64,000 nucleotides of DNA from Candidatus Spechtbacteria bacterium (GCA_016188605.1 JACPHP010000003.1:16400-80399), one strand, 5' to 3'. Counted from the stretch's first letter, positions 34 to 38,301 are shown. Notes: generated from the letters alone by a model not told the origin. A program made the numbers and translations.

Positions 34-1338
34 TTAATCTTGGGCAATCAGTACTTTGATAGCTTCAATGTTTTCTTCATCAGTTACGTCTCGACTAGAC
101 ATTTTATGAATCCTAAAAACATCTTTCTGCTCAATGAAATTTGCTCTTTTCACATATTCTTCAAATCGAGTATCTATATCCCTAGCCCAAGGACCTTTCA
201 TTACAGAAACCCCCATACGGTTAACATAACCAAGAATCTTTTTAATTTCCGGAATTGCTTGTGTGCCATCATCAAAGTCATCGCCGTCAGTGCCCTGAAA
301 AACATAAATGTTATAGTCTCTGGCCAGTCCTTCACCCTCAACAATTTCATTAATCTTTTTGTATCCCGAGGCAATTAAAGTTCCACCGCCCGCGCTTTGC
401 CGAAAATACCCCAGAGCTGAAACTTCTTTTGCACCCGTATCATGAACAATGAATCTGGGAATAACCAGACCCTCGTACTGGAACAAAAGCCAGGCATAAA
501 TCATTAGATGCTGTGTAACAACGGCTTTGGTCGGCTCGCCCATCATAGAGCCAGAATAATCTCTCAAGAAAAATACAATTGCCTGAGACTTCCATACCCG
601 TTCTCTTGATAGAACTCGATAAATTTTGTCTTGAGGTCCAACTATAAGCTTAGCAGGATCGATATTGCCTACATCCGCGCGGCCAAGCGCAACGTTTGTG
701 CGCACAATACGTAGAAGCGTAGCTTTTTTATCCAAAAGCTGACCTGAGCCAGGATGCCTGTCGGTCAGATCAAAGATATATTCGTCGGTTGGAACTTTCT
801 TGCCTTTATCTTTGAGATTAGGCAGCTTGAACTCTTCCGAAAGTTTCTTGCCTAGCTCGTAGGCCTCACTCTCAACACCATGATTGCCGTCACCTTGGCC
901 GGCTCGCGGATCATCTCCCTCTTCATCGCCATCACCTTCGCCATCGCCAAGGGTCGCGTAGCCAATAACATCTCCAACTTCGCCCTCTCCCTGTCCTACT
1001 ATATCAGGGAAATCATCATCTTCTTCTTCATTAGGTTCAAAATCTCCATGAATTAATTGCTCTTCTTCCACATACGGCACCATTATGATTCGTCCTGGGC
1101 CTGCAAGTGTCCTACGGATTTTAATCTTCTTGGGGAATCCGTCTTTTTCTCTTTGCGCATCTATCTGTAGAAGATCATCGAGCGACACTAGCGACATTAC
1201 TGGGCTAGGGGTGGAAGATGCGTATAAGCCAAGTTTGTGCATATACCGTAATATTGCCGATCGCTTCATGCCATCAATATCAGATTCTGTCATAAAATCA
1301 TTTTTCATTGCACCTGCCTCCTTCGTAGCGCTACGCAC
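34..1338 (-). CDS. yeaH: YeaH/YhbH-like DUF444 protein with vWA-like region (paralog 1)
   Basis: 434 aa. Blocks matching E. coli YeaH: LPNLK..., FFLRDYSGSM, GGGT, YVFQGTDGDD. Acidic G/D/E-rich linker. Confidence 0.8.
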   Translation of the reverse strand: MRSATKEAGAMKNDFMTESDIDGMKRSAILRYMHKLGLYASSTPSPVMSLVSLDDLLQIDAQREKDGFPKKIKIRRTLAGPGRIIMVPYVEEEQLIHGDFEPNEEEDDDFPDIVGQGEGEVGDVIGYATLGDGEGDGDEEGDDPRAGQGDGNHGVESEAYELGKKLSEEFKLPNLKDKGKKVPTDEYIFDLTDRHPGSGQLLDKKATLLRIVRTNVALGRADVGNIDPAKLIVGPQDKIYRVLSRERVWKSQAIVFFLRDYSGSMMGEPTKAVVTQHLMIYAWLLFQYEGLVIPRFIVHDTGAKEVSALGYFRQSAGGGTLIASGYKKINEIVEGEGLARDYNIYVFQGTDGDDFDDGTQAIPEIKKILGYVNRMGVSVMKGPWARDIDTRFEEYVKRANFIEQKDVFRIHKMSSRDVTDEENIEAIKVLIAQD

Positions 1339-1409
1339 GACATCGCAATAAACTTACAAATAGATAAAATGAGCCGGACCTATGCCCGGCTCATTCTTGG
1401 GTTTTTATT

Positions 1410-3479
1410 TTATGCCTCATCTTCCTTGGTGCAGAAGTATTCAATAGTCTTCTGAGCGCAAGTCGAACAGTAATTCAACTTATCTAGCATGGTTCCAATC
1501 ATCCTATTGCGAATCTTAGCATTTTCTTCATTGGTCGGATTAGCTAATGCGCCAACCAAGCTACCAGCTCCCGCAACATCAGATAGCAAACGCACGTCGG
1601 TTACGGCCTTAACTAAATCCTGGCTGTCCATGAAGTCATAATTTGGATCGACTCCAATTTTCTGGCCGTAAATCTTGCGAATCGTGTTTTGATACGACTC
1701 TTTGCGCTCTTTAGTTGTAAGGCCAAGCCGCGCCTCAACAGAATCAACGAACGTCTGATCGATCTTAATTGACTTAACTTCGCCAGTCTGTGGGTCGCGA
1801 TATCGCCACATTTTTTCCGGACCAAGACTCGCCGAGTCCATACCGATGACCATATTCACATATGCCAGAACATCCTTGCGAACTGCATCAGGGTCGTCGC
1901 GATAGGCATTAAAGATTGCGGTTTTTACCTGCTCACGATATAAACGCCGAGCAGTATCAAGATCCTTCATATACTTTTCACGATCAGTCGCTTCTGAAAC
2001 GTAATCAAGAATAATGCGTTTCAAGGCCGTAAATACATCCTTGGCAAACATGCACTGGCCTTCGTCGGTAGTTGTCATGGCGCCAAGAATCTGCAACGAC
2101 CTGCCAAGGTCACGATGTCCTAAACCCTTCTGCCCCCAACGCTTGGTAACATCGGGGCTCGCGTTAGCAACTTCTCTGACCTCAGCCAATGCTCCTACGC
2201 TTTTATCACCGGCAATCTCGCCAGCTTCAAGCTTCATTGTCTCAATAGGGGTCAACTTCGTAGAGTGCAGAAGCCGTGTTAGAACAACGCCAACAGAAGC
2301 AGCATAAATAAGGTTAGGATCCTGATGCATCGGCTCGCCTAGAATCGTAGTCCTAACGCCACCACCTAGAGAATACCCGGTCAATTCCTGCTGTAATTTG
2401 TAGTCGGTGTTGTGCGATACATAAACAATTCGGCAACGATCTTTGATTGGCGATTCATCTTTTTCTGATACGAACCTGTTATATGCCTCGTTGTTGCTAG
2501 TGGCAATAATCAAAGCATCGATAGGCCATATGAAACCGTCTACTTCGATGTTCCTGCTTTGGATAACCTGCAAGTAGATCTGAACCAGGTCTTTTTTATT
2601 CCTGAAAAGCTCATCGGAAAAATGAATACCGCTGCCAGCAACTCGAGCCAAAGCTCCTCGTTGCAAGTCAAACTTATTTGGATCACCCAATTTCAAAAGC
2701 AAAAGGTGCTGAAGAGATTCCTCTCCCAACAGGTCAACCGACGAAGAAGTAATTTTGTCTTTGGCCGAATATTTCCCGGTAACAGTACCTTGGCTCTCGC
2801 TCATTGGCACGGGAACAACGCAAATGTGCCGGAGCGCTTGCTCCACATTGCCGTCATAATGCTCGAGTAGCGCGCTCCACAGATATTCTGTTGAAGCGCC
2901 CAGTGGCCGTCTGTACGTGTAAAGACTATCAATAGCCCTGTCGCTAAAACCCATGCGAGCAATAAATTCCGCGCTTTCATCCTTATTACCCAAAAGGTTC
3001 ATTGCCAAGATCATAGGATCTTCAAAGTTTAAAGAGTGCAGATCTGCAGCTCTTGGATCATAACCAAGAGCATCATCCAGGCCTACGAACTTAAAAGTAT
3101 ATTTGCGGTTTCCAAGTACTGACAGAAACTGACGATAGTAAGAACATATATAATCCACGAAAGCGGTTTTACCGTTTCCAGGCTCACCAATTAGAACCAA
3201 TGCCATCTCTTTGGCCGATCCGCCTTCGGCAGCATCTTTAATGAAATGAACGCACTCATTAATTTCGTCGTACCAGCCAATAATGTGCCTCGACCCTTGC
3301 CGAAAAAACAAAAAATCATATACTGTTCTTCCACCACGAGAAAGCTTAATAAATCCTTTTTCCTGGATCATCCTATTAACACTTTGAGCTGCTGTTTCAA
3401 ACCTTCTATTTCCAGCCAAAAATTCTTGAGCATGGAAGTTTAAAGTCTTATTATCTGGCACTAGAAGTTTCTGCGACAT
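1410..3479 (-). CDS. prkA: PrkA family serine protein kinase with AAA+ N-domain (paralog 1)
   Basis: 689 aa. Walker A GEPGNGKT. Block IIATSNNEAYNRFVS...DRCRIVYVSHNTDY aligns with YeaG ILAHSNESEW...DRVYIVKVPY. Confidence 0.8.
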   Translation of the reverse strand: MSQKLLVPDNKTLNFHAQEFLAGNRRFETAAQSVNRMIQEKGFIKLSRGGRTVYDFLFFRQGSRHIIGWYDEINECVHFIKDAAEGGSAKEMALVLIGEPGNGKTAFVDYICSYYRQFLSVLGNRKYTFKFVGLDDALGYDPRAADLHSLNFEDPMILAMNLLGNKDESAEFIARMGFSDRAIDSLYTYRRPLGASTEYLWSALLEHYDGNVEQALRHICVVPVPMSESQGTVTGKYSAKDKITSSSVDLLGEESLQHLLLLKLGDPNKFDLQRGALARVAGSGIHFSDELFRNKKDLVQIYLQVIQSRNIEVDGFIWPIDALIIATSNNEAYNRFVSEKDESPIKDRCRIVYVSHNTDYKLQQELTGYSLGGGVRTTILGEPMHQDPNLIYAASVGVVLTRLLHSTKLTPIETMKLEAGEIAGDKSVGALAEVREVANASPDVTKRWGQKGLGHRDLGRSLQILGAMTTTDEGQCMFAKDVFTALKRIILDYVSEATDREKYMKDLDTARRLYREQVKTAIFNAYRDDPDAVRKDVLAYVNMVIGMDSASLGPEKMWRYRDPQTGEVKSIKIDQTFVDSVEARLGLTTKERKESYQNTIRKIYGQKIGVDPNYDFMDSQDLVKAVTDVRLLSDVAGAGSLVGALANPTNEENAKIRNRMIGTMLDKLNYCSTCAQKTIEYFCTKEDEA

Positions 3480-3772
3480 GACTGGTCTCCTCCTTGCTTG
3501 GATATGAAATTATAAAAGATCGCAATTACTGGAAATAAAAAAGGGCATTATGAGAACATTGCCTCTGCAAATGTTAACCCTCCTCTTTAGAGACCCCTCC
3601 TCATTGAAAGAATCTCCTTAGGGATAGAGTCGACACCGAGAGAACGTCTCAGCTTGCCCTTTCCTTTCCAGGAATATCAAAGCTATTTGCTCTGACTAAT
3701 TACAGTGTAACGTGTGCCATAAAATTGTGTCAACTTCCCATTGGAAATAAATCATGTTTAAATTATTACAAA

Positions 3773-3800
3773 GTAAAACCCCCGCGGTTATGCGGGGATT
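3773..3800 (-). terminator. Hairpin cccccgcggttatgcggggg plus T-run downstream of spoVR (minus sense)
   Basis: GC stem and U-run read on the minus strand directly after the spoVR stop. Confidence 0.5.
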
Positions 3801-3805
3801 GTGTT

Positions 3806-5107
3806 TTAAAAATCTCTTATTCTAAATCCATTTTTTCTGTCATATGTATGTCGAATCACCCCTTTCTTCGTGGCAATGATTACTTCAATCGGAATTTTCC
3901 AAAGACTGTACATTAGCTCCAGAGCGCCCCTGAGCATTTTTGGCTCAAAGACCTTGCCCTGATAAGTGTGGAGTAGCACAAGCCGTCCTTCAGTATCAGG
4001 TGTTTTTACAATACGAACTGGAAGATTGGGCGCGTATCCTAAACATTCAATGAATCTATCGCTGACTTTTTTCCATCCTCTTTCATCGGAAATATCAGTG
4101 ATGCGAATCCGCTCTGCAACTAAATAAATTTCTTCGTGTTCGTCACCCGGCGCGGGACTCCAAGAAAAAAGACTGTTCTCTTGCGCAATTTTTTGATCGA
4201 GGAACCGCGCAACAAATGTCACATCGTGCATAGTATCGCGCGCATGAAATAATGCTTCCCTGCCGTAATTGCTGTCAATCGCCTCAAAAAGCACGGACCC
4301 TATTTGCTGTAAATTCAAACTTCCTGGTTTGGGAAATGCGACAGTCTCTTCATGCGCCTGCCTGCATTGCGCGAAAAGATCGTCTGATACACCCGCCGCC
4401 TCCACGATGCGCGTCGCAAAAAAAGAAGCGTATCCTGCCATCATTAACTTTGTTTCTATTCGCGGCAATAACCATTTCCATTCATCGTGCACAATGCGCA
4501 AAATATCTTTCTGCCAATTCTCCAGGACCGTACTTGCAAAAATTGTCTCTTCAAGCAAATCGCACGTCTTGTCCCCCCAAAGCGCGGAATGCGAGCATTG
4601 ATAGCGCATTGCATGCGCTGCTGTCAAAACATGCTCCACTTTCTCATATCCTATAGCGTCGTCATTTCTATATTGGCTAATACGTTCTGAGTTTGTCCGC
4701 GACCTATCCCATACATCGTCTGGCACATTGAACCAAGCACGATTATGGCTTACAAAATCGTTCAGCGCAAGAAAGTATGCCAAAAAAAACAGCTGGCCCC
4801 CGAGAGAAAAATCATACGGCATAAACGCGCGAGGCTCTATGCCCATCGCCATCAAGTCACAAAAATAAATTCTCTTTCCGTGATGGAAAAAATCTGCATT
4901 TTTGCCAAACGACCAATGGCTATATTTGCGCGGCCCGCCGTTCATTGCTGCTACGGCTTCTTGCTGGCGTTTATTTACTATATATATAGTAGGATCGTTT
5001 GCCGGCACGCTCAAATTCATACCTATGGCAGCTTGCTTAAACTGCTCGTAATAATCTACGAGTATGTTATTGCTCATTACCACTTCTCCTCTTTTCGCAA
5101 AACTCAA
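3806..5107 (-). CDS. spoVR: SpoVR/YcgB family protein
   Basis: 433 aa. KYSHWSFGKN matches YcgB YTHWSFGKKY. True start is probably the internal Met at about 5077, given the overlap with the upstream gene. Confidence 0.8.
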   Translation of the reverse strand: MSFAKRGEVVMSNNILVDYYEQFKQAAIGMNLSVPANDPTIYIVNKRQQEAVAAMNGGPRKYSHWSFGKNADFFHHGKRIYFCDLMAMGIEPRAFMPYDFSLGGQLFFLAYFLALNDFVSHNRAWFNVPDDVWDRSRTNSERISQYRNDDAIGYEKVEHVLTAAHAMRYQCSHSALWGDKTCDLLEETIFASTVLENWQKDILRIVHDEWKWLLPRIETKLMMAGYASFFATRIVEAAGVSDDLFAQCRQAHEETVAFPKPGSLNLQQIGSVLFEAIDSNYGREALFHARDTMHDVTFVARFLDQKIAQENSLFSWSPAPGDEHEEIYLVAERIRITDISDERGWKKVSDRFIECLGYAPNLPVRIVKTPDTEGRLVLLHTYQGKVFEPKMLRGALELMYSLWKIPIEVIIATKKGVIRHTYDRKNGFRIRDF

Positions 5108-6578
5108 TCAATAGCGTAAATGCTTTGCCCGCGCCCTCATGATCTCCAAAGCGCGCTGCGACAATATTGCCTTGACCCCGAGAAGCCACATCTAGAAATT
5201 CTTTGATAGCGGTGAAAGAACCGGTCGGCGATTTGGTCTTTGGATCACGTATCGTCCCATCACCATCCACGCATACAAGCGAACTGGCAGCTCGCCCCAT
5301 AAACGGATCGTAGTCCGAATAATTAGGGCCGATATGCCCCACTTCAAAATATCCCATAATATCGGTAACTAACGCCAGTCTTGCAATTGCTTCGCTTAGA
5401 ATGGCTGGATTCTTATCTTCCTCTTCTTGTTTTTCGCCATCGCTTAAAATAAACACGAATTTATTCCATTCAATGCCGGAATATTCCTTTTCCAGAATAT
5501 TTAATGCCATGTTAAGGCCACTGGAAATAATTGTCCCGCCGTTCGCAAAGCGATGGAAAAATTCCCATTCCGCTTTTTCGCCCGCATGGCGCTTGGCTTC
5601 TCTATCAAACGTAATAAAAACCAAATCGACGCGATCGTGTTCCATGCGAATTGCGCGAAGAAGATGCATGCAGAATACGCGAATAAGATTTAAGATTTCT
5701 TCTTTTCTCGTGCTATGTGAAGCGTCTCTCACAAAAATCACCACGGCATTGCTTTTATATTCCTCTCTGGATTCATGACGAATATAGCGCAGGTCTTCTT
5801 CGCTAAAATCATCGTCCCCATCGCCAATGCGCTCCATTCTTTTTTCAGATGTCTTGCGTTTGTGCAGCTGTGCTTGCGGACCGCGCATTCTCACGCCATA
5901 GGGACGACCTTTCGTACGAACTCGCAAGGCGCCTAAATTTGTTGTGCGCAAAAGAGGAAGATGGAATTGCTCAGCTATCGCATCAAGCAGTTGCTCAATC
6001 CGCACATTTTCCTCAAAAGCAACGCCTTCAGGATTTACACCCGCCCCCTGCGCCCCGTCAGTGAATTCTGGATCCATTTCATCATCGGGCCAGTGCGGAA
6101 AATCCATTTTCTCTGATTCTTGACCGGCTTCTGTAATAGGCACGCGTCCGAGTTCTTCTCCTCTACGAGCCGTCTTACTCTGGCCCACCCCAGAGCTCTG
6201 CTCGCCAAAACGTGAAGGCTTCTTTTTATTGCTGCTCGGACTTTGTGGCATCTCGCCTCGTTCATCGTTTCCGCCAGCAAATTCGCCGCTACCTTGTACC
6301 TGCTCTTGAGACTCCATAACCAAATCACTATACTCTTCTGCTTCATAACTCCACTCGTCGCCCGCATGATCCACGAACAACAAGCGCGATTCAGGAAGCG
6401 CAGGAACCTTGAGGGATATAATCCCGCCAGTCAAAATCCTGGTCAGCCCCACTTCATTTATTTCCATAAGCCTTGATGCGTTAGCGAATATACCGACCAA
6501 CGCACGCGCTCGATGATCTTCTCTTTCATATGCTAACGGGTCTGGAGATTGCGCAATTGATATAACGCGCAAAGCCAT
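5067..6578 (-). CDS. YeaH-like DUF444/vWA protein (paralog 2)
   Basis: 503 aa. VVIFVRDASHST, FANGGTIISSGL and FVFILSDGE blocks match the YeaH vWA region. Confidence 0.75.
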   Translation of the reverse strand: MALRVISIAQSPDPLAYEREDHRARALVGIFANASRLMEINEVGLTRILTGGIISLKVPALPESRLLFVDHAGDEWSYEAEEYSDLVMESQEQVQGSGEFAGGNDERGEMPQSPSSNKKKPSRFGEQSSGVGQSKTARRGEELGRVPITEAGQESEKMDFPHWPDDEMDPEFTDGAQGAGVNPEGVAFEENVRIEQLLDAIAEQFHLPLLRTTNLGALRVRTKGRPYGVRMRGPQAQLHKRKTSEKRMERIGDGDDDFSEEDLRYIRHESREEYKSNAVVIFVRDASHSTRKEEILNLIRVFCMHLLRAIRMEHDRVDLVFITFDREAKRHAGEKAEWEFFHRFANGGTIISSGLNMALNILEKEYSGIEWNKFVFILSDGEKQEEEDKNPAILSEAIARLALVTDIMGYFEVGHIGPNYSDYDPFMGRAASSLVCVDGDGTIRDPKTKSPTGSFTAIKEFLDVASRGQGNIVAARFGDHEGAGKAFTLLIEFCEKRRSGNEQ

Positions 6579-6694
6579 TTCGTTCCTCCTTCAAAATTAG
6601 ATCTAAAAAATTAGGATATTACTTTTTTCTGCATTTCCGTAGACGAGATACGTGTGAGTAAAAAAGGGTGCTCCGAGCACCCTTTTATTTTAGT

Positions 6695-8596
6695 TTATGC
6701 TAACGGCTCGCAGGCCTTCTTAAGATTCCATGCAAAACATACCGGGCAATATTTTGTTAATCCTTTTCGTGCCCGCAAAGTATTTTTCTGCTCGCGCGAA
6801 ATTAAAGAACTTGAAAAAAACCAGGACATGATCTCGAGCACCCTGCTCATATTAGTTCTGTTATTTCCGTTGACGCGAGGGAGTCTATCCAACTCTTCAC
6901 GCAATTCAACTGCTATGTCTTGCGCGCTTCGCATACGATTTACTTCCTTAAAAATTTCAGGAATAAAGCCTGTTTCTGTTAGATGGTTAATAAAAGATTC
7001 TCGCGCGCGCCTTTCAAATTCAACCGCGAGAAACCCATTAACAGCATCGCGCATACGAGTAAGCCATACACGCTCGTCGCCCTTTGTGCGCACAAGTCGA
7101 TTGGTCAATGACTTTGTCAGTGATGCGCGCGCGTCATCAAGTGTAACACAAGTTGCCTGTTGCTCCTCGCCGCTCAGAACACCCGGCATTTCTACGCGGC
7201 TGAATGACGACTCCAGCGCCCTCTGCAAGAATCGCGTGGAAAAACCTTGGAACCCTTCGTCGGGGTGATTTGCCCTGCGCTCCGCAACACGTTCTTCAGA
7301 ACCCTCTCCCCCATCACCATCAAGAAGTTTTAACAGCGCGAATACTTCATCAGGCTTCATTGGCACAGTTTTGTCAGATTTTACTTCTTCTTCAATGCGC
7401 GAGTATACCGCAACTGATGCTAAGAAGTCTTCTGTTTCTGGAGCACGATGCGCGCGAACAGAACGCTGGCGTAAAATTTTATCGTGAATTTTTCTATCTT
7501 CACTGACAGCCATTGCGTAACGCACGGGCTGAACAACCATTCTATCGAAAAGCGCTTCCTGATCAGGATTGCGGCTTTGCCTTTCAAACTCAGACAAATT
7601 GGAGTGTGCGATAATTACAAAATCTGAAGACATAGTGGTACGATATCCCGGGGAGGGGTACCGATCGTCTTCCGTGGCAATAAGCATAAGATGGAGAGCT
7701 TCTTGAGGAGCCTTAAACATCTCAATCCACTCAATGACTCCGCCGGTTCCTCTATTAAATGCGCCACTAAAATTCATAAGCCTGGCTGAACCTGCGTCAT
7801 ATTGACTCATTAAACGAATTTTCTCACTGCCAATAAGAATTTCGATACCCATTGTATTGGGGTCAAATGGCGGAATCTTTACAAGTCCTTGACCGCGCCG
7901 CGCGGAAATTCTTTTTGTTACAATCGGAGTATCTTCCCATTTATTCCCAAGCCCCGACAAATGTTCGCTACACACTGGGCATACGTCTTTTGTAGGATGA
8001 ATGGCGTGACCAATCTCGCGCGAAATTTTCCCGCGGAGATGAAGCGGAATTGCCCAGAGCGGGGAATGATTAACGGGGCACTGCTCACTATCGGGCCATT
8101 GAATGACAAACATCGCGTCATCAACAATAAGCTGCTGAACAGCTTCTACAAAACGCGACTTGCCAACCCCGACTCCGCCCTTCAAAAAGAATATATTTCT
8201 GGAGGTAATACCACCCTGCGCCGCGTTACTCAAAAAAAGATAAAATTCGTTGAGCACTTCCTCAAAATCGAAAAAAGATTGCGCCAAATACGTAGGAATA
8301 ATCAACTGGGAAAGCGGTCCTTCTTTAGAAAGACCGAGCGCTCGCGCGCGCCGCGGATTTGTTTCGTGACTTACGATAGTAAGCGCTGGCACGCCCTCGG
8401 GCAATCCCGGGGGATTAACGCACACACGTCTAAAAATCCTTTGAGCCGCATTATCAAATACCCATGGCTCGCTACTGCCAAGCTCAAGAAACCCTAATAT
8501 TGACCCCCTCCAATCCTCCCATCTCGACTTTGCCGCCGCACGCTCCTTGCGGTCTTCATCAATAAGCTTTTTAAGCGACTGAATAATGGCGCCCAT
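6695..8596 (-). CDS. prkA: PrkA/YeaG family protein kinase (paralog 2, YeaG-like)
   Basis: 633 aa. GGVGVGKS Walker A; IEWIEMFKAPQEALHLMLIATEDD...FVIIAHSNLSEFE matches YeaG MEFVEMFKAPIKVLHPLLTATQEG...GIILAHSNESEW. Confidence 0.8.
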   Translation of the reverse strand: MGAIIQSLKKLIDEDRKERAAAKSRWEDWRGSILGFLELGSSEPWVFDNAAQRIFRRVCVNPPGLPEGVPALTIVSHETNPRRARALGLSKEGPLSQLIIPTYLAQSFFDFEEVLNEFYLFLSNAAQGGITSRNIFFLKGGVGVGKSRFVEAVQQLIVDDAMFVIQWPDSEQCPVNHSPLWAIPLHLRGKISREIGHAIHPTKDVCPVCSEHLSGLGNKWEDTPIVTKRISARRGQGLVKIPPFDPNTMGIEILIGSEKIRLMSQYDAGSARLMNFSGAFNRGTGGVIEWIEMFKAPQEALHLMLIATEDDRYPSPGYRTTMSSDFVIIAHSNLSEFERQSRNPDQEALFDRMVVQPVRYAMAVSEDRKIHDKILRQRSVRAHRAPETEDFLASVAVYSRIEEEVKSDKTVPMKPDEVFALLKLLDGDGGEGSEERVAERRANHPDEGFQGFSTRFLQRALESSFSRVEMPGVLSGEEQQATCVTLDDARASLTKSLTNRLVRTKGDERVWLTRMRDAVNGFLAVEFERRARESFINHLTETGFIPEIFKEVNRMRSAQDIAVELREELDRLPRVNGNNRTNMSRVLEIMSWFFSSSLISREQKNTLRARKGLTKYCPVCFAWNLKKACEPLA

Positions 8597-8850
8597 TTAT
8601 CCTCCCATCTTTTCCACAAATCATGCCTTAGCATTTCTTGCTACAAGCGCACTAAAGCACAAGTTGTAAAAGTACGTGACTGGCTACATTATAGATAGAA
8701 ACGATAATTATGCAATGGCTATATATTTTTTCAAGCTTACGCGTAAGGCATGCACATGTATCTAGACAAATAAATCAAGGCGTTATATAACTGCAAAAGT
8801 TACGTTTCTTAACAACAGACATCCAACACAATAGCAAGGAGGAAAATGTA

Positions 8851-11367
8851 GTGCGTCTACGTAGTGGACCTAGGATTCTAGCTCCAGAGGAACTTTACGG
8901 CCGATGCGATCCTGCAAAATTTGCAGATAACTCTAGCGCCAAAGGTCCTCCTGTCGGATTCATTGGTCAAGAAAACGCATGTGCGTCGTTAGAGTTCGGA
9001 CTCACAGAGCTTACGGATGGCTACAATATCATGGTTATTAATCCCAACAGCGGAAGTCGGCGTTCGGTGTTGCGCGAAGTTGTGCGAGAAATTTTGAACA
9101 CCCACTCCTTGCCTTATGAACTGCATGATTATTGCTACGTGCACAATTTTGCAACTCCGGAGCGCCCATCTCTAGTCATACTGCCCGCGGGGCGAGGCAA
9201 GACCTTCCACAGAGACGTATTGGGATTATTCCAAATGCTTTCGCGGCAAATCCCCGAAGTTATGTCTAGCTTTGTCACAATTCAAAGCACGCAGGCGATA
9301 CAAGACGAATGCGAGGGGCAAATCACTAATCGAATAGCAGCGTTCAGTATGATAGCCGAACAATCCGGACTGACAGTATATCAACGCACCAATCCTCAAG
9401 ATGGTCATGGAATAATTGAGCTAGTAGGCATTGAACCTGCAATAAATCCGGAAACCTTTGAGCCTGTTATGACTCAAGATGGGAGACCACAGTTTGTTCG
9501 CGTCAAACTGCTTGATTGGGTGTGGAATAGAAATCTTAGTGACGACCAACGCTCTTGGCGCCACCAAACGGCCACTCTTTGGGGTGCGCGATTTCAGGAA
9601 TTGTCACGTCTAATTTCTTCTCTAAAACAACAGACGAGAAAAAAGATTGATCGCCATCACAAACAACTGATTAACAATATAGCGGAAAACTCGACAGAAT
9701 CATCGTCCTTGCGATCGCTGCGCGAAAATTATCCGGAAGCAAGGGAATATCTTACAGCATTGCGACGATATATTTTTGCTCATATCAATGAGTTTATGAG
9801 CCAGGGAAAAGATGATGGGGAGGAAGATTCTTCTAGCCAAGTGATTCCGATTCCTTTCGTCGTAAATGTCTATGTGGAAAATGATCCTGCGCAAACGCAG
9901 ACGCCTATAATTAAGCCAAGCGATTTTACCCCGGCAAAATTTATTGGCACATTCAACACAGGACGTATGCCGAATGGCATGCCTCACATGGACCATACTA
10001 AAATGACTGCCGGCGATGTGGCGCGAGCAAATGGCTGCGTACTCATTATAGATGATGCGCTGCTTAAAAGCTCAAGGGGCGCTGTGCTGTGGCGGTGGTT
10101 AATTAAAACGCTGCATAATAAAACAATTGAACCTGAAGATGATACGGCTGGCGCCAATGAACTGCTGGGAATATCCAGCAGCACTAACTTCCGCCCACAG
10201 CTAATCCCGCTACAAATAAAAGTTGTCTTTCTTGTTGATCGCCGCATATACTACGATGTGCTCGTAAAAAATGTGGCCGATCAATTAGATGACTGCTTCC
10301 GTGTGCAGGCAGAACTATCTGACACAGCGCCTCGAACAGACGATAATGAAATGAAGTACAAGGCGTTTATCGATGACTGCCAGAAAGCCGCGGGGCTGTT
10401 GCCGTTTGACGCAACGGCCATAGCGCAAATTGTCCAGTACAGCTCGCGAATGTCTGGCGATAAGGAAGATCTTGCGCTTGATATGCGCGAAGTGAAAGCA
10501 ATCTGTCTTGAAGCAAATCGCGTGGCACTTGATGCCAAGGCAAGCATTGTTACCAGGGAGCATGTCCAGCAAGGCGCTCAGAGAAAGCGTAAAAGGACAT
10601 CACTTGTACGAAATAAGATGTTTCAGCTTATCGAGCGAGATATGATAATCATTCACACCGAAGGCAAAGAAGTTGGACGAGGCAATGGCCTTGCTGTGTT
10701 CAACACCATTAATGATCAGTTTGGATTGCCTATGACCGTAACATCACGTAAATTCTATGGTTCCGGCTTTAGTGTGCTGTTCCTAGATAGCCAAGCAAAA
10801 GCTACGGGCAAATCTTTCGAAAAGGCTGCCGGCACAATCGAAACCCTGCTTAAGGCCCGCTACGGAGAGTATCGAAACTTTCCTATCGCCGTAAGTATCT
10901 CATTTGAGCAGAACTATGGCGGTATTGATGGCGACAGCGCTTCGGTTATCGAGTGGCTGGTTGCGGTTTCCGCTATCGGCAACATTCCCCTACGACAGGA
11001 TATTGCCATCACCGGCTCTCTGGGCCAACACGGCCAAGTACAGCCCATTGGTGGTGTCAATGAAAAAATTGAAGGATTCTTCGATGTCTGCTCAAGCAGA
11101 GGACTAAATGGCCAGGTGGTGCTAATTCCAGAACACAATGTTCGGAACCTAGCTCTTCGTCATGATGTAGTTGAGGCATGCGCGCTGGGTAAATTCCACG
11201 TGATGGCCTACAGCACTCCGGAACAGGTGATGGAGTTTGCCAGTGGCATCTCGATGGAAGAAGTCGATAAGATGAGCAACGACGCGATTGAGCAAGCAAT
11301 CGCCCGCGCCAAAGAACAGAAAGAGAAAGCGGGCACTACTGCTAAGGATGAAAAAACAGAACAATAG
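8851..11367 (+). CDS. Lon-like S16 peptidase with degenerate AAA-like domain (paralog A)
   Basis: 838 aa. GTG start with AGGAGG RBS. C-terminal DGDSAS...IGGVNEKIEGF fits the Lon Ser-Lys dyad region (GPSAG...IGGLKEK). No intact GxxxxGK[ST] Walker A (NPNSGSRRS). Confidence 0.7.
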   Translation: MRLRSGPRILAPEELYGRCDPAKFADNSSAKGPPVGFIGQENACASLEFGLTELTDGYNIMVINPNSGSRRSVLREVVREILNTHSLPYELHDYCYVHNFATPERPSLVILPAGRGKTFHRDVLGLFQMLSRQIPEVMSSFVTIQSTQAIQDECEGQITNRIAAFSMIAEQSGLTVYQRTNPQDGHGIIELVGIEPAINPETFEPVMTQDGRPQFVRVKLLDWVWNRNLSDDQRSWRHQTATLWGARFQELSRLISSLKQQTRKKIDRHHKQLINNIAENSTESSSLRSLRENYPEAREYLTALRRYIFAHINEFMSQGKDDGEEDSSSQVIPIPFVVNVYVENDPAQTQTPIIKPSDFTPAKFIGTFNTGRMPNGMPHMDHTKMTAGDVARANGCVLIIDDALLKSSRGAVLWRWLIKTLHNKTIEPEDDTAGANELLGISSSTNFRPQLIPLQIKVVFLVDRRIYYDVLVKNVADQLDDCFRVQAELSDTAPRTDDNEMKYKAFIDDCQKAAGLLPFDATAIAQIVQYSSRMSGDKEDLALDMREVKAICLEANRVALDAKASIVTREHVQQGAQRKRKRTSLVRNKMFQLIERDMIIIHTEGKEVGRGNGLAVFNTINDQFGLPMTVTSRKFYGSGFSVLFLDSQAKATGKSFEKAAGTIETLLKARYGEYRNFPIAVSISFEQNYGGIDGDSASVIEWLVAVSAIGNIPLRQDIAITGSLGQHGQVQPIGGVNEKIEGFFDVCSSRGLNGQVVLIPEHNVRNLALRHDVVEACALGKFHVMAYSTPEQVMEFASGISMEEVDKMSNDAIEQAIARAKEQKEKAGTTAKDEKTEQ

Positions 11368-11507
11368 AATATCTAAGGGCTCTTCGTAAGAAGAGCCCCT
11401 TTTCATTCTACTAAATAGTGTGGACATCACACTCCCTACGATATATAAAGTCAGTATTGATGGCTGATAAGCATCATGGAATGATACAGGCTCTTTAACA
11501 ATTCATT

Positions 11508-13988
11508 TTGGAAAGGGGGCGTGATATGACGCTAAAGAAACTTTCAGCCGATGACCTAATCGCCAAATGTAATCCTAAAAAATTTGCAAACAAAAAATAT
11601 ACGTCTGACCCGCTGATAGGATTTATCGGTCAAGAAAAAGCGTATCGAGCTTTAATTGATGGGCTAACTCAACCCGCCAACGGCTATAACATCATTGCCA
11701 TAGATCCGGGCATAGGGCTACAGTCGGTAATCAAAGAGGTAATTGCGCAAATAATCAACGATTATTCCGTCACAATATCGCAAAAAGATTATTGTTACGT
11801 GCACAATTTTGACGATCCTCTAGCGCCAACATTGCTCACCTTTCGCGCCGGTACAGGCCAGCAATTCCGTGCTGATATTTTGAAACTTTACGAAACATTG
11901 CAGATCAAAATTCAGGAAGCCCTGGCGGCTGGCGACTATCACATGCAACTGCAGCTAATGGCGGAGGATGCAGAAGCGCGCGTTCAAAAAATTTGGGCAA
12001 TTCTCAATAGAGAAATGGACGGCGATCGCCTTATTATGCATGACGTTGGCGACGGCCTTCATCTGTTTAATTTTGCAAGGCGCAAAAATTCTGATGAAAT
12101 GCAGCTGATGCCGGCGGAACTTTGGATAAATGATGTCACTAATAGCATTAGCGATGAAGAACTTCAAAAACGCCGCGGCGCGCGCGCAAAATGGCAATCA
12201 TCTATTTTCCGGGCAGCCAAAGAGGCGCAAGAGATTTCTCTTGCTCTGAAAAATGACGCTGCGGAAATGACAAAAATTATTGCCGTAAACACAATCAACA
12301 AATGCGTTGATCCTCTAATCGTTTCGTATCCGCAAGCCACGATGTTTATAGAAAAACTCGGGCAATTTGCTCTTAGTAAACTGCCTTTCTTTAGCGGACA
12401 GGCGTCTGCAAACGATCAAGGCGATCACGAGCATGATGGCAAAGAAGAGGGTGATGATGAGGAAGATGAAGCGAAAATTGCATTTTACGTAAACGTTTAC
12501 GTCGAGAACAATCCGGACAGCAAAATGCCACTTATTGTCGAAGCGTCGCACATGACTTACGCCGATATATTCGGCGAACTTGACCGTGATAGCCGCCTTG
12601 GCACGTATTACACTGACCACTCCAAGCTTTCTGCCGGAGCGATTGCCGTAGCAAACGGCGGCGTGCTGTTTATTGACGGCAACCAATTTTTCACAAGCCA
12701 AAACGGACAGCAAATGTGGGATGCTCTGCGCCATACGCTAAAAACGCGCATGATTGAGCTCAAAGAACTGGCGGATGAAGATGGTATTCCTCTTCCGCAC
12801 AAGCTTCGCCCTCAGCCAATTCCCTTTGAAGGAAAAGTTGTCCTACTGATAAGCCCCGCGATATACGAACTATTGCTTCATATATTTCCGTCTGATGTGC
12901 ATTCTCTATTTTGTATATCTGCTTGGTTTTCTTCGACCGCTCCGAGAACAAAGATGAATGAATATAAATACGCGCAATTTGTTACATGTTGCCAGCAATC
13001 GGAAGGGCTTCTCGCGTTTACGCCGAGTGCTATTGCAAGGATTATTGAATACGGATCACGCCTTGCGGAAGATAAAGAAAAACTTTTTTTAAACATGAGC
13101 CCTGTTAAGGCGCTTGTTATTGAAGCTAGTACTGTGGCTCAAGATACCAACGCGCGAGAAGTAACTGCGAGCCATGTGGAACGCGCGATTTCCATTCAGC
13201 GCGAACGAGTATCTCTTATTCAAGATCGTGGACTTGAAAATATTGTTCAAGGCCAAATTATTATTCGCGTGAAGGGCAATGAAATAGGCAGAGGAAATGC
13301 TCTGGCGGTATTTGAAGAAGCTGGCGAAGAATTTGGTTTGCCAGTAACAATCACTGCTCTGCGCCACCCCAGCGAAGCATTCGCAATCTCAATTTTAGAC
13401 GCTGATGCTGGCCAGACGGGTAAGGTGTTTAAGAAATCGGGCGGTATTATCACAAGCATCATTAAAAACTATTACGGCGCTAGCAGTGAAATTCTTTTTG
13501 ATATCACAATATCATTTGAACAAACCTATGACGAAATTGACGGCGACAGCGCGTCTACCATTTTAATTTGCACTGCTCTTTCCGCCATTGGCAATATCCC
13601 GCTGCGGCAAGACGTTGCAATTACGGGCTCCGCAAACCAGTTAAGCGAAACCCAAGCAATTGGCGTAGTCAACCAAAAAATTGAAGGTTTTTTTGACACC
13701 TGCGTCGCGTTAGGCGCGCTAGCCGGCCAAACCGTTCTCATTCCCGAACATAATGTAAGAGATCTAATGGTCCGTAAAGATGTCGTTCTGGCGTGTGAAA
13801 AAGGCGCTTTCAACGTCTATTCTTACTCAACGTGGCGCGAGGCAATGGAATTCATAACGGGCCTTTCTATGGCGGAGGTTGACCAGCGCGTCAGGGCCGA
13901 AATCTCTAAGGCAAAACGCCGCGAACAACGCTCTGAAGCAAAGAAAAAGAAAAAGAAAACTGCCAGAAAAATAACTACTGATAAATAA
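11508..13988 (+). CDS. Lon-like S16 peptidase, paralog B
   Basis: 826 aa paralog of the previous gene (GFIGQEKA..., DGDSAST...VVNQKIEGFFD). Likely start at the ATG at 11526 after a GGGGG RBS. Walker A degenerate (DPGIGLQS). Confidence 0.7.
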   Translation: MERGRDMTLKKLSADDLIAKCNPKKFANKKYTSDPLIGFIGQEKAYRALIDGLTQPANGYNIIAIDPGIGLQSVIKEVIAQIINDYSVTISQKDYCYVHNFDDPLAPTLLTFRAGTGQQFRADILKLYETLQIKIQEALAAGDYHMQLQLMAEDAEARVQKIWAILNREMDGDRLIMHDVGDGLHLFNFARRKNSDEMQLMPAELWINDVTNSISDEELQKRRGARAKWQSSIFRAAKEAQEISLALKNDAAEMTKIIAVNTINKCVDPLIVSYPQATMFIEKLGQFALSKLPFFSGQASANDQGDHEHDGKEEGDDEEDEAKIAFYVNVYVENNPDSKMPLIVEASHMTYADIFGELDRDSRLGTYYTDHSKLSAGAIAVANGGVLFIDGNQFFTSQNGQQMWDALRHTLKTRMIELKELADEDGIPLPHKLRPQPIPFEGKVVLLISPAIYELLLHIFPSDVHSLFCISAWFSSTAPRTKMNEYKYAQFVTCCQQSEGLLAFTPSAIARIIEYGSRLAEDKEKLFLNMSPVKALVIEASTVAQDTNAREVTASHVERAISIQRERVSLIQDRGLENIVQGQIIIRVKGNEIGRGNALAVFEEAGEEFGLPVTITALRHPSEAFAISILDADAGQTGKVFKKSGGIITSIIKNYYGASSEILFDITISFEQTYDEIDGDSASTILICTALSAIGNIPLRQDVAITGSANQLSETQAIGVVNQKIEGFFDTCVALGALAGQTVLIPEHNVRDLMVRKDVVLACEKGAFNVYSYSTWREAMEFITGLSMAEVDQRVRAEISKAKRREQRSEAKKKKKKTARKITTDK

Positions 13989-19303: not shown

Positions 19304-19398
19304 TTTGAATCATGAATTGTGAATAATGAATCATGAATACTATGATTGATTCACTACTGCAATCCACTATTCATGATTCGTGATTCATTATTCAATTT
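19304..19398. repeat. Family-1 AT-rich hairpin repeat (tgaatcatgaattgtgaata ... tattcatgattcgtgattca)
   Basis: Imperfect long dyad built from TGAAT-N2-TGAAT units. Family recurs at 26293, 27769, 28492, 32448, 41131, 57548 and 52950. Confidence 0.6.
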
Positions 19399-20147
19399 AC
19401 GTCATGCTCGCAGACATTCAAATTTTCGCCTGCTCTCCCGGATGTTTGGGAATTTTCGCTCTATCGTTTATACCAAGCCTAATTTGGCTAGCTTTTTTTT
19501 GGGTACAAGATAAAAACCCGGAGCCGAAACGTATTATTCTGCGCGTTTTTTTATGGGGTTTCCTTATTGCAATTCCAGTTATTGTCATTGAAAATATGCT
19601 GCAATATTATGCATACCCCCTATTTACGGCAACTGGTACCGCGTGGCTATACGGTTTTCTAGGAATTGCATTAATTGAAGAAACGGCAAAATATCTCACC
19701 GTGCGCTATAAGGCCGTGCCACTGCGCGTTTTTGACGAGCCGCAAGATGCCATAATTTATATGATTACTGTCGCGCTAGGCTTTGCGGCAATTGAAAATT
19801 TCTTTTACGCGTTCAGCGCGTACAATCTCGGTTTTTCCGCATCTATGGCTTCACTTGCGGGAAGATTTATCACATCAACACTGCTTCATGTTGTCAGCTC
19901 CGGAATCCTTGGCTACTTTCTTGCGCGAATATATTTTCTTGAACAAGAAAAAAATTCTCTTGCGATATTGCTAACAGGTCTAATGTTTTCCACAGTGTTG
20001 CATGGTTTGTACAACTATTTTATAATTCAGACAGGAGGATATATGATATTATCTGTTATTCCTGTTATGCCCGTGGCTCTCCTTCTTACAAGTAGCGTAT
20101 TTCTCCTATTTCTTTATTGGCATTTACGTACATTTTCTTATCAATAA
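19380..20147 (+). CDS. PrsW-like intramembrane protease family protein (tentative)
   Basis: Multi-TM protein; EETAKY (EExxK) motif and conserved His/Asn positions. Start may be the ATG at about 19404. Confidence 0.45.
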   Translation: MIHYSIYVMLADIQIFACSPGCLGIFALSFIPSLIWLAFFWVQDKNPEPKRIILRVFLWGFLIAIPVIVIENMLQYYAYPLFTATGTAWLYGFLGIALIEETAKYLTVRYKAVPLRVFDEPQDAIIYMITVALGFAAIENFFYAFSAYNLGFSASMASLAGRFITSTLLHVVSSGILGYFLARIYFLEQEKNSLAILLTGLMFSTVLHGLYNYFIIQTGGYMILSVIPVMPVALLLTSSVFLLFLYWHLRTFSYQ

Positions 20148-20950
20148 TTTTTTTTCACCGCTTGGTGAATATAAATATGACTAAATCTTTTTTTGAAAAA
20201 CTTGCGAGCTCCCTCAGGATGGAAGAAGCTAAAGAAGAAACGGCGCAATACGACGAAGAACAGGTTACCGCAGCGGAAGAAAATGCGGAAATACCTATGG
20301 AAGAAATGACCGATTCGGAAACAAATCCCGGGTCTGAAGAAACGGGTACAGAACCGGAAACTGTGCCTTATCCCGGCGAAGAAGAGGATGATAGGGCCAA
20401 GGAAGAGATGACGGACGACGAAGAAAACGAAGGAGGAGAGGACGAGGAAGAGAACGACCTGGAGGGTTCGTATACCGCCGTTACGCAAGAACCAAAGAAA
20501 TACGAAACACAACTTGCGGCCGCACGATCAAAAACTACAACACGCCATCGTCGCGTTGCGCACAAACATATCACATTGCCCCGCGTACAAGAAACAGAGG
20601 ATATGATGGATGAAGATATGGAAGGACAACTTGCAATTGATGTGTACCACACAGAAGATGATATTATCATCAAGTCCACAATCGCAGGCGTTGATCCGGA
20701 AGATTTGGATATAAACATCGCGGGTGACACTGTAACCATTCACGGCGAAAGAAAAAAAGATCATGAGATTTCCAATGAGAGCTATTACTACCAAGAATGC
20801 TACTGGGGTAGCTTCTCTCGTTCTATAGTATTGCCGGTTGAAGTAGATGGGGACAAAGCAGAGGCAGGATTTCAAAATGGTATTCTCACCATTCGCTTAC
20901 CAAAAGTTGCAAAGAATAAATTAAAAAAAATCCGCGTGACGAAGAGATAG
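20117..20950 (+). CDS. Hsp20/alpha-crystallin family chaperone with acidic N-terminal extension
   Basis: C-terminal ACD: AIDVYHTEDDIIIKSTIAGVDPEDLDI...GILTIRLPK. Probable start MTKSFFEK at 20177. Confidence 0.7.
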   Translation: MAFTYIFLSIIFFHRLVNINMTKSFFEKLASSLRMEEAKEETAQYDEEQVTAAEENAEIPMEEMTDSETNPGSEETGTEPETVPYPGEEEDDRAKEEMTDDEENEGGEDEEENDLEGSYTAVTQEPKKYETQLAAARSKTTTRHRRVAHKHITLPRVQETEDMMDEDMEGQLAIDVYHTEDDIIIKSTIAGVDPEDLDINIAGDTVTIHGERKKDHEISNESYYYQECYWGSFSRSIVLPVEVDGDKAEAGFQNGILTIRLPKVAKNKLKKIRVTKR

Positions 20951-28642: not shown

Positions 28643-31600
28643 TTACACTACCAGCGCAGATGCCACCTTATCCCCACTTTCAAGCCTCATAATGCGCACG
28701 CCTTGCGTAACACGACCGAGATGTGGAATATTCTTCAGACCAACACGAATGACATTGCCGCGCTCGGAAACAACTATTAATTCGTCCTCTTCTTCCTTAA
28801 GTATTTGCGCGCTAACAAGCGCGCCTGTTTTTGCAGTAATATTTGCCGCTTTAATGCCAAACCCGCCTCTATGCTGAACCTTAAATGAACCAATAGCAGT
28901 TCGCTTGCCGTATCCATTCTCCATGATAACAAGAATGTCTTGCTTCTTATCGCTCGCGCCAATCATGCCCATGCCTATTATTTCGTCGTTTTGCTTTACG
29001 TGCAAACCATGTACTCCCCCCGCGGCGCGACCCATCGAACGAATATCAGATTCTTTAAAACGAATACTCTGACCCTGTTTTGTTACCAGCATAATATCGT
29101 CTTTGCCTGTGGAGATTGCCACCCACTGCAAGATATCATTACCCTTCAAATGCAAGGCAATGAGTCCGTTGCGACGAACATTCTGGAAATCTTCGATCTC
29201 TGTCTTTTTGATTATACCACCACGCGTAACCATAACCAAAAATTTTGCTTCTTTAGGATTACGGTCAAGTGGGATAACGGCAGTTACGGTTTCGTTGGCA
29301 GTCAAATCCAAAAAGTTAACTAGCGCTTTGCCTCGCGCAATGCGCGTGGATCGCGGTATTTCATATGCCAGCGTTTGGAATACGCGACCCGTGGAAGTGA
29401 AAAACAAAATCCTGTCGTGCGTTGACGCGGACAAGAAATGCTCCACTAAATCTTCGCCCTTACGTTCAATGCCAAGAATACCCTTGCCGCCGCGATGCTG
29501 CTGCTTATAAACCGTTGGCTGTACGCGCTTAATGTAGCCGTCTTTAGTGATGGTGATAATAGTTTCCTCTTTTGGAATTAAATCCTCTTCTTTGAATTCT
29601 CCAAGAGCCGCGGCATGGACTTTCGTTTTGCGCGTCCCGCCGTAAAGCGTTTTAAGATCACTAAGCTCTTCTTTGATTTTTACCCACATGCGCTTTGGCT
29701 CGTCGAGAAGCAACGTCCATTCCGCGATAAAGCGCTTTTTCTCCTTCAATTCTTCTTCAATCTTTTTGCGCTCAAGATTAGCCAGGTTCTGCAAACGCAT
29801 ATCCAAAATCGCGCCGGCCTGAATGTCGGTAAAATCAAATTTCTTTTTCAAATTGTTATGCGCGTCGGCGCGGTCTTGCGACGCGCGGATAGTTTTAATA
29901 ACCTCGTCAATGTGGTCAAGCGCTTTTTTCAAGCCCTCCAAGATATGCGCCCTCTCTTTAGCGCGCGCGATATCAAATTCCGTGCGCCTGCGCACAACTT
30001 CATGCTTATGCGCAAGATAATGCTCGAGAACCTCTTTCAACGAAAGCACTCTCGGCTCGATACCATTAACAAGCGCCAGCATGTTGAGGTGGAATGTCCT
30101 TTGCAGTTCAGTGAATTTGTATAAGCTGTTTAGAATTTTTTGCGGATGCGCGTCGCGCTTCAGCTCAATAATAACGCTCATACCGCGCTGGTCTGATTCA
30201 TCGCGAATATCACGAATACCTTCGATGCGGCCGTCCTGCACAAGGTTTGCCATTGTTTCAATGAGAGTTGCCTTGTTTACTTGGTACGGAAGCTCTGTAA
30301 TTTCAATATAAGAACCTTTTACGTCATCGCGTTCGTTTTCATCAAAAATCTGCGCCTCGCCGCGCATTAAAATCGGCCCCTTGCCTTGGCCATATGCCTC
30401 CATAATCGCCTTCTTTCCATATATAGTGCTTCCGGTTGGGAAATCAGGACCCTGAATAAACTGAAAAATATCCTCCAGCGTCGCTTTAGGATGATTGATA
30501 AGATGAATAAGCGCGTCCACCACTTCATTAAGATTATGCGGCGGAATGTTCGTCGCCATACCAACTGCAATACCCATTGTGCCGTTAAGCAAGAGCTGGG
30601 GAATTGCGGAGGGCAAAACTTTCGGCTCCTTGCGAGTGCCGTCGTAGTTATCCATCCAGTCAACTGTGTCTTTATCAATATCGCGCAGCATTTCTACGGC
30701 AATCTTGCTCATACGCGCTTCGGTGTTGTGATTGATAAAACCATTTGCCACGAATGAATGGCAATCACTTTCTACTTTTATAGAATAAACCTTCTCTATA
30801 CCGCCGTCCTCAATTTTTACTATAGGATCAAAAAGATAATGATTATCCAAAAGTTGCGAAAAAAGATTGACAATGCTCGTTTCCACGCGATGCTCAACCG
30901 CTGTCACAACGCGCTCATAATTTCTTCCCATTTCCGTGTAACGATCGAAATTATGTTTCAATGCAAATTCACGCACATTGTACAAAACTGAATTGCTTAA
31001 ATTAGCACGAACATAGTCAGATAAAAACGGTACTGTGTCGCTCGCGGTTTGTTCTTTGAAGAGTCGCTCGATGGCTACGGTTAGTTTACTTTTTTTGCGC
31101 TCCGAAATAAATCCAATTTCTTTTGCAAAAACAGAATAATTACTCAGCCCTCGCAAATAAAGTTTGTGTGTCGCGCGATATTTGTCAAAACGCTTGGTTG
31201 CCGCAATGCCAAATCGCAAGAGTAAAATTTGTAATTGGCTAAGCAATTGTTCACTTTTTGATATCGCGCTTAATTCAGTCATTGTAGCGCTAAAGGTAAT
31301 AGTACCATCGCCCTCGAAATATGCGCGTATAAAAGAAGACGCAACTGCTTTTGACGAACGGAAAATAATATGGGGTATTGTTCTAGCGCCAGATTTTGCG
31401 GTAACTAGCCCTATATTGCGTAAAAAAGCAATTACATGCTGTGAATGCACTTCAAAAGTTTTATATGGCTTCGTGCCGTATGAATTGGGGCGGCGCTCGA
31501 AGGCATGCAACCGGCAGTCAGGAAAAACCCTCCTCCAACGCTCTGAAAATTCAGCCATCCATTCATCGTCCGTATTGCAAAACTCTAATTCTTTCTCTTT

Positions 31601-38183: not shown

Positions 38184-38257
38184 CCGCCCTTAGCTCAACT
38201 GGTTAGAGCATCGAGCTTATACCTCGACGGTTCCTGGTTCGAGTCCAGGAGGGCGGA
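38184..38257 (+). tRNA. tRNA-Ile(UAU) (anticodon read as TAT)
   Basis: Acceptor ccgccct/agggcgg, D-arm gctc-aactggtta-gagc, anticodon stem tcgag/ctcga with loop ctTATac, T-arm cctgg-ttcgagt-ccagg. Confidence 0.6.
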
Positions 38258-38301
38258 CAGGGACTAAAACCCCAAAGTAGAGTTTATGTTTTCAATATGC
38301 C

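Follow-up and report, generated by a model that had tools for sequence, protein, structure and literature searches.

Two Lon-like proteases that stand back to back with genes of the PrkA family raise the question of whether the two sets of genes form one functional system or are neighbours only. This arrangement is found in a Candidatus Spechtbacteria bacterium (GCA_016188605.1, JACPHP010000003.1:16400-80399), an ultra-small member of the Parcubacteria in the candidate phyla radiation (CPR) that is represented by a metagenome-assembled genome (MAG). We analysed a stretch of 64,000 nt of this genome, hereafter the window, of which positions 34-13988 were studied. This part contains seven genes: five on the minus strand that encode PrkA, DUF444 and SpoVR proteins, and two on the plus strand that encode the proteases. 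An initial annotation had described the locus as duplicated PrkA-YeaH pairs around SpoVR, next to two proteases lacking intact ATPase motifs, and had suggested a combined supermodule. Its open reading frames (ORFs) lie at the coordinates that it had given, and all seven of its domain calls agree with our profile searches against Pfam and NCBIfam, which assigned every gene of the locus to a known family.

We conclude, with a probability of roughly 0.72, that the locus is a lineage-specific juxtaposition of a four-gene PrkA operon (module B), a second and very divergent PrkA operon (module A) and a tandem pair of LonC proteases. All of these families are known, and the arrangement is what is particular to the lineage: the placement of LonC beside a PrkA operon was found nowhere else among the loci surveyed. 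We observed directly which genes are present, to which families they belong, in what state their motifs are and how rare the arrangement is, and operon boundaries are placed by consensus matches.

Two PrkA operons across the window edge

The window boundary lies 33 bases past the outermost gene, DUF444b, and cuts the gene map. Lookup with the PrkA2 protein of the window gave two contigs that extend further and stem from separate, independent assemblies (L005 and L006). On these contigs DUF444b is followed, beyond window position 1, by a second SpoVR (SpoVRb, 573 aa), a third PrkA (PrkA3, 722 aa), a GT2-like gene and recG. Since SpoVRb and PrkA3 lie downstream of DUF444b, the locus consists of two full operons and not of pairs around one SpoVR. 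The genes and families in the initial description thus hold, whereas the pair architecture does not. In total, three PrkAs, two DUF444s and two SpoVRs are found within 13 kb, and the three PrkA paralogues and both LonCs within 20 kb.

Module B has an in-window part (34-3479) and an off-window part (L005:12172-17380). The in-window genes encode PrkA2 (1410-3479, minus strand, 689 aa; Pfam PrkA_C 92.9 bits and AAA_PrkA 45 bits with a cut-off of 25) and the YeaH-like, VWA-containing DUF444b (34-1338, minus strand; Pfam DUF444 108 bits, NCBIfam NF003712 440.8 with a cut-off of 421), for which the Logan gene call has 424 aa and the longest ORF 434 aa. With PrkA2 above the Pfam cut-off and DUF444b above that of NCBIfam, the second pair does not consist of unrelated proteins. 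The gene of PrkA3 (L005:15212-17380) is likewise confirmed by Pfam. A Shine–Dalgarno (SD) sequence, AAGGAGG, precedes the ATG of PrkA2. The Walker A motif is retained in all three PrkAs of the locus, with GEPGNGKT in PrkA2 and GPPGCGKS in PrkA3. PrkA2 furthermore has a Walker B-like IHFSDE, and PrkA3 reads IYVLMDI at the same site. Of the two PrkAs in module B, one may therefore lack the Walker B glutamate, which hints at a catalytically asymmetric pair.

The order PrkA (~685 aa)–DUF444–SpoVR (~570 aa)–PrkA' (~725 aa) was observed in all five other Parcubacteria lineages that we looked up (L001; L002-L004; L171; L172; L173), that is, in six lineages including this one, and module B is identical to it in gene order. 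The operon is usually followed by a GT2-like gene of ~520 aa and recG. Because SpoVR and PrkA' come next both on the longer contigs and in the other Parcubacteria, the apparent second pair is the front half of this four-gene operon, and the contrast that had been drawn with a canonical module of a single set was misleading. Homologues of PrkA2 are 64-76% identical across many named Parcubacteria groups, and DUF444b shares 65-66% identity with its DUF444 counterparts in other Parcubacteria. Our literature search found no paper that links PrkA or SpoVR to CPR bacteria, and none that mentions the conserved four-gene operon with two PrkAs in Parcubacteria. A cluster with two PrkAs has been described as a haloarchaeal signature, with the order prkA–prkA–DUF444–spoVR (PMC3102087). 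Module B resembles this cluster in that one DUF444 and one SpoVR are accompanied by two PrkA paralogues that differ strongly from each other, but the gene order is not the same. What distinguishes our locus from both two-PrkA clusters is that an additional full module A precedes module B.

Module A comprises PrkA1 (6695-8596, minus strand, 633 aa; Pfam AAA_PrkA 221 bits with a cut-off of 25; Walker A GGVGVGKS), the YeaH-like DUF444a (5067-6578, minus strand, 503 aa; Pfam DUF444 119 bits, with a weak VWA match of 20 bits) and SpoVRa (3806-5077, minus strand; Pfam SpoVR 122 bits). SpoVRa has 423 aa from the ATG at 5077, and its longest ORF starts at 5107; the gene is also called in L005. DUF444a and SpoVRa share 11 nt at their junction, and the ATG of SpoVRa is preceded by the SD sequence AGAGGAG. 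Module A thus agrees, in its three families and in their order, with the canonical prkA(yeaG)–yeaH(DUF444)–ycgB/spoVR operon that is found in Proteobacteria, Firmicutes and many other bacteria. It shares with this operon the translational coupling of DUF444a and SpoVRa, an intact Walker A in PrkA1 and a match to the YeaG model. However, PrkA1 reaches only 166 bits against the YeaG equivalog model (residues 99-465), far under the cut-off of 576, and its C-domain (PF06798) scores 19.7 bits against a Pfam cut-off of 25. The same domain is carried by a PrkA1 relative that is 44-46% identical (P0243), and the C-terminal YCPxC motif is conserved. Further differences from the canonical operon are that DUF444a is longer and SpoVRa shorter than usual, and that the lineage of module A is very sparsely populated.

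PrkA1 is closer to the YeaG-type PrkAs than PrkA2 is, as it combines the 166-bit match with a match to a solved PrkA-type chain (PDB 9xip, E 5e-23), whereas PrkA2 has 23 bits against the YeaG model and no match in the PDB. The match that PrkA1 and PrkA2 share covers only a 39-residue P-loop segment (BLASTP E 0.001), and the identity between DUF444a and DUF444b is 28% along a stretch of 189 residues. The two operons thus carry ancient paralogues and not recent duplicates. Relatives of PrkA1 are rare: a word-indexed search returned only two, with 76% and 44% identity and both on Logan contigs of ~2 kb, and when 1.84 billion representatives were scanned exhaustively with HMMER, only 29 matched at E<=1e-30, the closest with 76, 46 and 40% identity, followed by 38% and 33-35%. 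A scan of metagenomes of the Joint Genome Institute (JGI) with an alignment of the PrkA1 clade found nothing above 35% identity. As judged from these searches, PrkA1 represents a rare and deep PrkA lineage that is very sparsely populated. Among the 80 metagenome loci most similar to the PrkA1 clade, 46 show the order PrkA–DUF444–SpoVR, and most of the others are interrupted by contig ends. Module A is an extra and rare copy of the canonical three-gene operon, from which it has diverged very strongly.

Promoters and terminators were called by consensus scans, which are not proof of function. In the gap between the two modules (3480-3805, minus strand, 326 bp) we found a terminator-like hairpin after SpoVRa (3800-3777, minus strand), in line with the terminator that had been noted there, and past it a promoter-like site (TTGACA-18-TACACT, 3733-3704). 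A promoter-like site for PrkA1 lies at 8734-8707 (minus strand). From these consensus matches, module A appears to have its own promoter and terminator. GC-rich hairpins also occur in the PrkA2–DUF444b gap (1366-1397) and in the PrkA1–DUF444a gap (6662-6686); these could be attenuators or could set the stoichiometry of the products. We also considered and rejected a 5' leader or riboswitch conserved upstream of module B, as Rfam finds only tRNAs in the window and the leader cannot be aligned with that of other Parcubacteria.

The Lon-like proteins as members of LonC

The two proteases are encoded by tandem genes on the plus strand. LonC1 (8851-11367) has 838 aa and a GTG start; LonC2 (11526-13988) has 820 aa from the ATG at 11526, or 826 aa from the TTG at 11508 that opens the longest ORF. 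They are 37% identical, which agrees with the earlier description of two paralogues of roughly 830 aa. Both contain the Pfam domains LonC_helical, AAA_32, LonB_AAA-LID and Lon_C. The catalytic Ser–Lys dyad is present in both. The motif DGDSAS that had been reported for the dyad region occurs in both proteins, whereas NEKIEGF applies to LonC1 only and LonC2 reads NQKIEGF. The dyad of LonC1 is Ser696/Lys739, and the motifs of both proteins align with the invariant S696 and K739 of the family alignment and with S582 and K625 of MtaLonC.

Several features place both proteins in the LonC subfamily (MEROPS S16). LonC proteins are characterized by two inserts, of which CX3GLX(G/E) follows the catalytic Lys and φX2Aφ lies in helix α5 (PMC3391209). 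LonC1 carries both (C-SSR-GL-N-G and V-VE-A-C), and so does LonC2 (C-VAL-G-A-L-A-G, with one extra residue, and V-VL-A-C). The proteins furthermore have an S16 domain with the dyad and an AAA-like module that lacks canonical Walker motifs and includes a helical insertion, and they are predicted to be soluble. No LonA N-domain was detected with Pfam (LON_substr_bdg) and no transmembrane segment was found in either protein, the maximum 19-residue hydropathy of 1.41 and 1.72 falling on strands of the core domain in both. The best solved relatives of LonC1 are MtaLonC/TTC1975 (4fwd, E 5.7e-59, residues 291-822), whereas the match to Thermococcus LonB is far weaker (E 7e-27). We thus assign both proteins to LonC on the basis of their domains and motifs. 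An archaeal-type, ATP-dependent LonB, and with it an ordinary ATP-competent protease, was rejected: the model TIGR00764 gives 133-147 bits against a cut-off of 517, the Walker motifs are absent and there is no transmembrane anchor.

The earlier observation that the ATPase motifs are not intact is borne out. The P-loops are degenerate throughout, reading NPNSGSRRS in LonC1 and DP-GIGLQS in LonC2 with no lysine, and the Walker B regions (VLIIDDA and VLFIDGN) lack the pattern hhhhDE. Because of this loss of the Walker motifs, we infer that LonC1 and LonC2 have no ATPase activity and would degrade proteins independently of ATP. This state is not a new feature, since LonC has been found in experiments to be ATP-independent and to act both as protease and as chaperone (PMC3391209, PMC13069640). 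Among 119 aligned homologues, only 22 have a Walker A of the form GxxxxGK[S/T]; in 38 another residue comes after the GK, and 48 carry GR. The Walker B glutamate is missing throughout the family. LonC1 and LonC2 stand at the degenerate end of a family that is already degenerate.

When comparing the two proteins to the LonCs of Meiothermus taiwanensis (MtaLonC) and Thermus thermophilus (TTC1975; PDB 4fw9/4fwd, 8k8v), we find the same domain set, dyad and inserts, the same lack of a LonA N-domain and of a transmembrane segment, and Walker A and B motifs that are likewise non-canonical. LonC1 and LonC2 are, however, about 100 aa longer, with a larger helical insert, and their P-loops are more degenerate than the GPPSLGKH of MtaLonC, with the Lys and the first Gly lost. 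In addition to the extra residue in LonC2, they differ from other LonCs in being two tandem paralogues and in belonging to a CPR genome; a second LonC copy within 10 kb was found at none of 80 other LonC loci. Among the homologues listed, both are at most 33% identical to any other protein over most of their length and up to 36% over partial matches, except for the LonC2 orthologue of a relative that is described below (P0002, 36%). A scan of GTDB genomes with LonC found nothing above 31% identity.

Linkage between LonC and PrkA operons

PrkA1 and LonC1 are separated by a divergent intergenic region of 254 bp with 35.8% GC (8597-8850), close to the AT-rich 255 bp that had been reported. About 85 nt on the PrkA1 side (~8650-8735) are ~85% conserved in a relative (L008). 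As the promoter region of PrkA1 is conserved to this extent between two organisms, the stretch is suggested to be a real control region. In the region between PrkA1 and LonC1 and in that between the two modules, the only repeats or operator-like elements are weak, imperfect inverted repeats of 16-18 nt. At 8836-8853, an AAGGAGG SD sequence is followed by an ATG-TAG mini-ORF (8846-8851) whose last base is the first base of the LonC1 GTG.

On the question of whether LonC genes co-occur with prkA operons, the gene neighbourhoods give a negative answer from both sides. On the LonC side, we surveyed 80 loci from GTDB species genomes with flanks of up to 10 kb, using phmmer (E<=1e-3) with the seven window proteins, SpoVRb and PrkA3 as queries; all positive controls were recovered, and PrkA, DUF444 or SpoVR was found at none of the loci. 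On the PrkA side, a LonC profile hidden Markov model found no LonC at any of the 80 metagenome loci (881 kb). Neither LonC nor module A occurs nearby in any of the five other Parcubacteria lineages with module B. The supermodule is thus without comparative support. Only one close relative, in sample SRR22387919, again has the tandem LonC pair and module A, on contigs that are too short to show adjacency. In this sample, the contig L008 carries a PrkA1 orthologue (76%) followed by the N-terminus of DUF444a (65%), and a separate contig (L010) carries the C-terminus of a LonC1-like protein (58%) followed by a LonC2 orthologue (61%).

Several observations nevertheless weigh against regarding the units as mere neighbours. 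Module A and the LonC tandem are both kept in this relative, and the two may travel together. Co-regulation or a functional link would also fit their adjacency across a divergent control region that they share and that is conserved in part. Furthermore, PrkA modules may be thematically linked to proteolysis, because proteostasis genes often lie directly upstream of module B elsewhere, for instance ftsH (L001, L002) or groES-groEL and an M48 peptidase (L172); we regard these neighbours as a weak thematic hint. Lastly, since the phmmer scans of neighbouring genes used only proteins of this locus as queries, very divergent partners could have been missed.

The initial annotation had put forward, expressly as speculation, that PrkA supplies the ATPase in trans. 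In such a supermodule PrkA1, an AAA+ ATPase with no proven protease site, would unfold substrates or deliver them to an ATPase-dead chamber of LonC1 and LonC2, as ClpX does for ClpP. This fits the divergent position of PrkA1 and LonC1 over the shared 254 bp, the loss of the P-loop lysine in both LonCs beside the Walker A kept in PrkA1, and the presence of both units in the related sample, as well as the report that PrkA of Bacillus anthracis, an AAA+ protein, has a pore loop and no detectable protease activity (PMC13001217). However, apart from the lack of linkage in either survey and in the other Parcubacteria, MtaLonC needs neither a partner nor ATP, and its protease chamber is already capped by an AAA-like ring of its own (PMC3391209, PMC13069640), so that LonC offers no obvious docking face. 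In addition, a strong hairpin resembling an intrinsic terminator lies between the two LonC genes (11377-11398), and by consensus scans each of them is apparently a separate transcription unit. We therefore consider such a supermodule improbable. Its most specific version, in which LonC1 and LonC2 form a (hetero-)oligomeric chamber that is fed by the adjacent and co-regulated PrkA1 with DUF444a and SpoVRa as adaptors, is a little more improbable again; if true, it would provide the long-sought proteolytic output of the PrkA family and the first two-component Lon system. Less demanding is the idea that the LonC pair is a dedicated regulator of module A or B that degrades or processes PrkA, DUF444, SpoVR or their targets, with co-regulation and no shared ATPase. 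The conserved control region on the PrkA1 side, the restriction of both the LonC tandem and module A to one rare lineage and the proteostasis genes beside module B in other Parcubacteria speak for it. However, no linkage is conserved outside the lineage, and LonC substrates are known in no organism; we regard this regulatory role as unlikely, though less so than the supermodule.

Two further explanations concern the origin of the block. Close relatives of LonC1, LonC2 and PrkA1 are almost absent, and no other named CPR genome contains one, as would be expected if module A and the LonC genes came from a non-CPR organism and were misjoined to a Parcubacteria contig during assembly or binning. 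Yet identical junctions between LonC, module A and module B are present in L005 (SRR12113424), L006 (SRR12113428) and the 81-kb NCBI MAG contig, and the GC content, overall and at third codon positions (GC3), is uniform over the block, with that of the LonC and module A genes matching the rest of the window. Because the junctions are common to independent assemblies and GC and GC3 are uniform, a chimera is very unlikely, and a recent horizontal transfer was rejected on the same grounds. An anti-phage defence island with Lon-like proteases and large ATPases, as in BREX, would be suggested by a loose resemblance only (an ATPase and a Lon-like protease) and by a tRNA-Glu gene that flanks LonC2. 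None of the seven proteins was matched by PADLOC at E<=1e-3, the block lacks an integrase, methylase or nuclease, and the proteins match the PrkA, DUF444, SpoVR and LonC families and not BrxL or BrxC. At the sequence level, this explanation is effectively refuted, and we give it hardly any credence.

The juxtaposition of independent units most likely corresponds to two AAA+–VWA–SpoVR stress modules beside autonomous, ATP-independent LonCs, with possible co-expression. The biochemical activities and any co-regulation that this entails are predictions from the known properties of these families. Each PrkA would be an AAA+ ATPase with an intact Walker A that acts together with its VWA partner DUF444 and with SpoVR, and the three would form a starvation or stress signalling or protein-remodelling unit. 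In six bacteria, the genes yeaG, yeaH and ycgB are tightly linked by cofitness (10.1101/072470). Even for the Bacillus proteins, studies disagree on whether PrkA is a Ser/Thr kinase or a protease: ATP-dependent protease activity was reported for B. subtilis PrkA (PMC9512850), whereas B. anthracis PrkA, when highly purified, is active neither as a protease nor as a kinase and resembles an AAA+ protein of the classical clade that has a pore loop (PMC13001217). Each LonC would form its own ring-shaped, self-compartmentalized Ser–Lys protease and chaperone that handles unfolded proteins without ATP. The units would probably be expressed under related stress, possibly through the shared 254-bp control region, and the modules and the LonCs would be mechanistically independent of one another.

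Neighbouring genes and implications

Further proteostasis genes are found ~5 kb past LonC2, where a gene for a PrsW-family intramembrane protease is followed by an HSP20-domain gene (19380-20950, plus strand). The gyrA gene (28643-32512, minus strand, 1289 aa) is interrupted by an intein with a LAGLIDADG homing endonuclease (Pfam Intein_splicing and LAGLIDADG_3). One of the 13 tRNA genes that are scattered over the window was called as tRNA-Ile with the anticodon UAU (38184-38258, plus strand).

What looked like an odd duplication is thus explained by the window edge, which truncates the map of two complete operons; the Lon without ATPase motifs is the known LonC subfamily. Since the four-gene operon is very strongly conserved across the genome-reduced Parcubacteria, the still puzzling system of PrkA, YeaH and SpoVR is suggested to perform a function that is indispensable to these minimal cells. 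As intrinsic protease activity of PrkA is now disputed, the lineage studied here furthermore provides a natural case for asking whether PrkA AAA+ machines cooperate with separate proteases.

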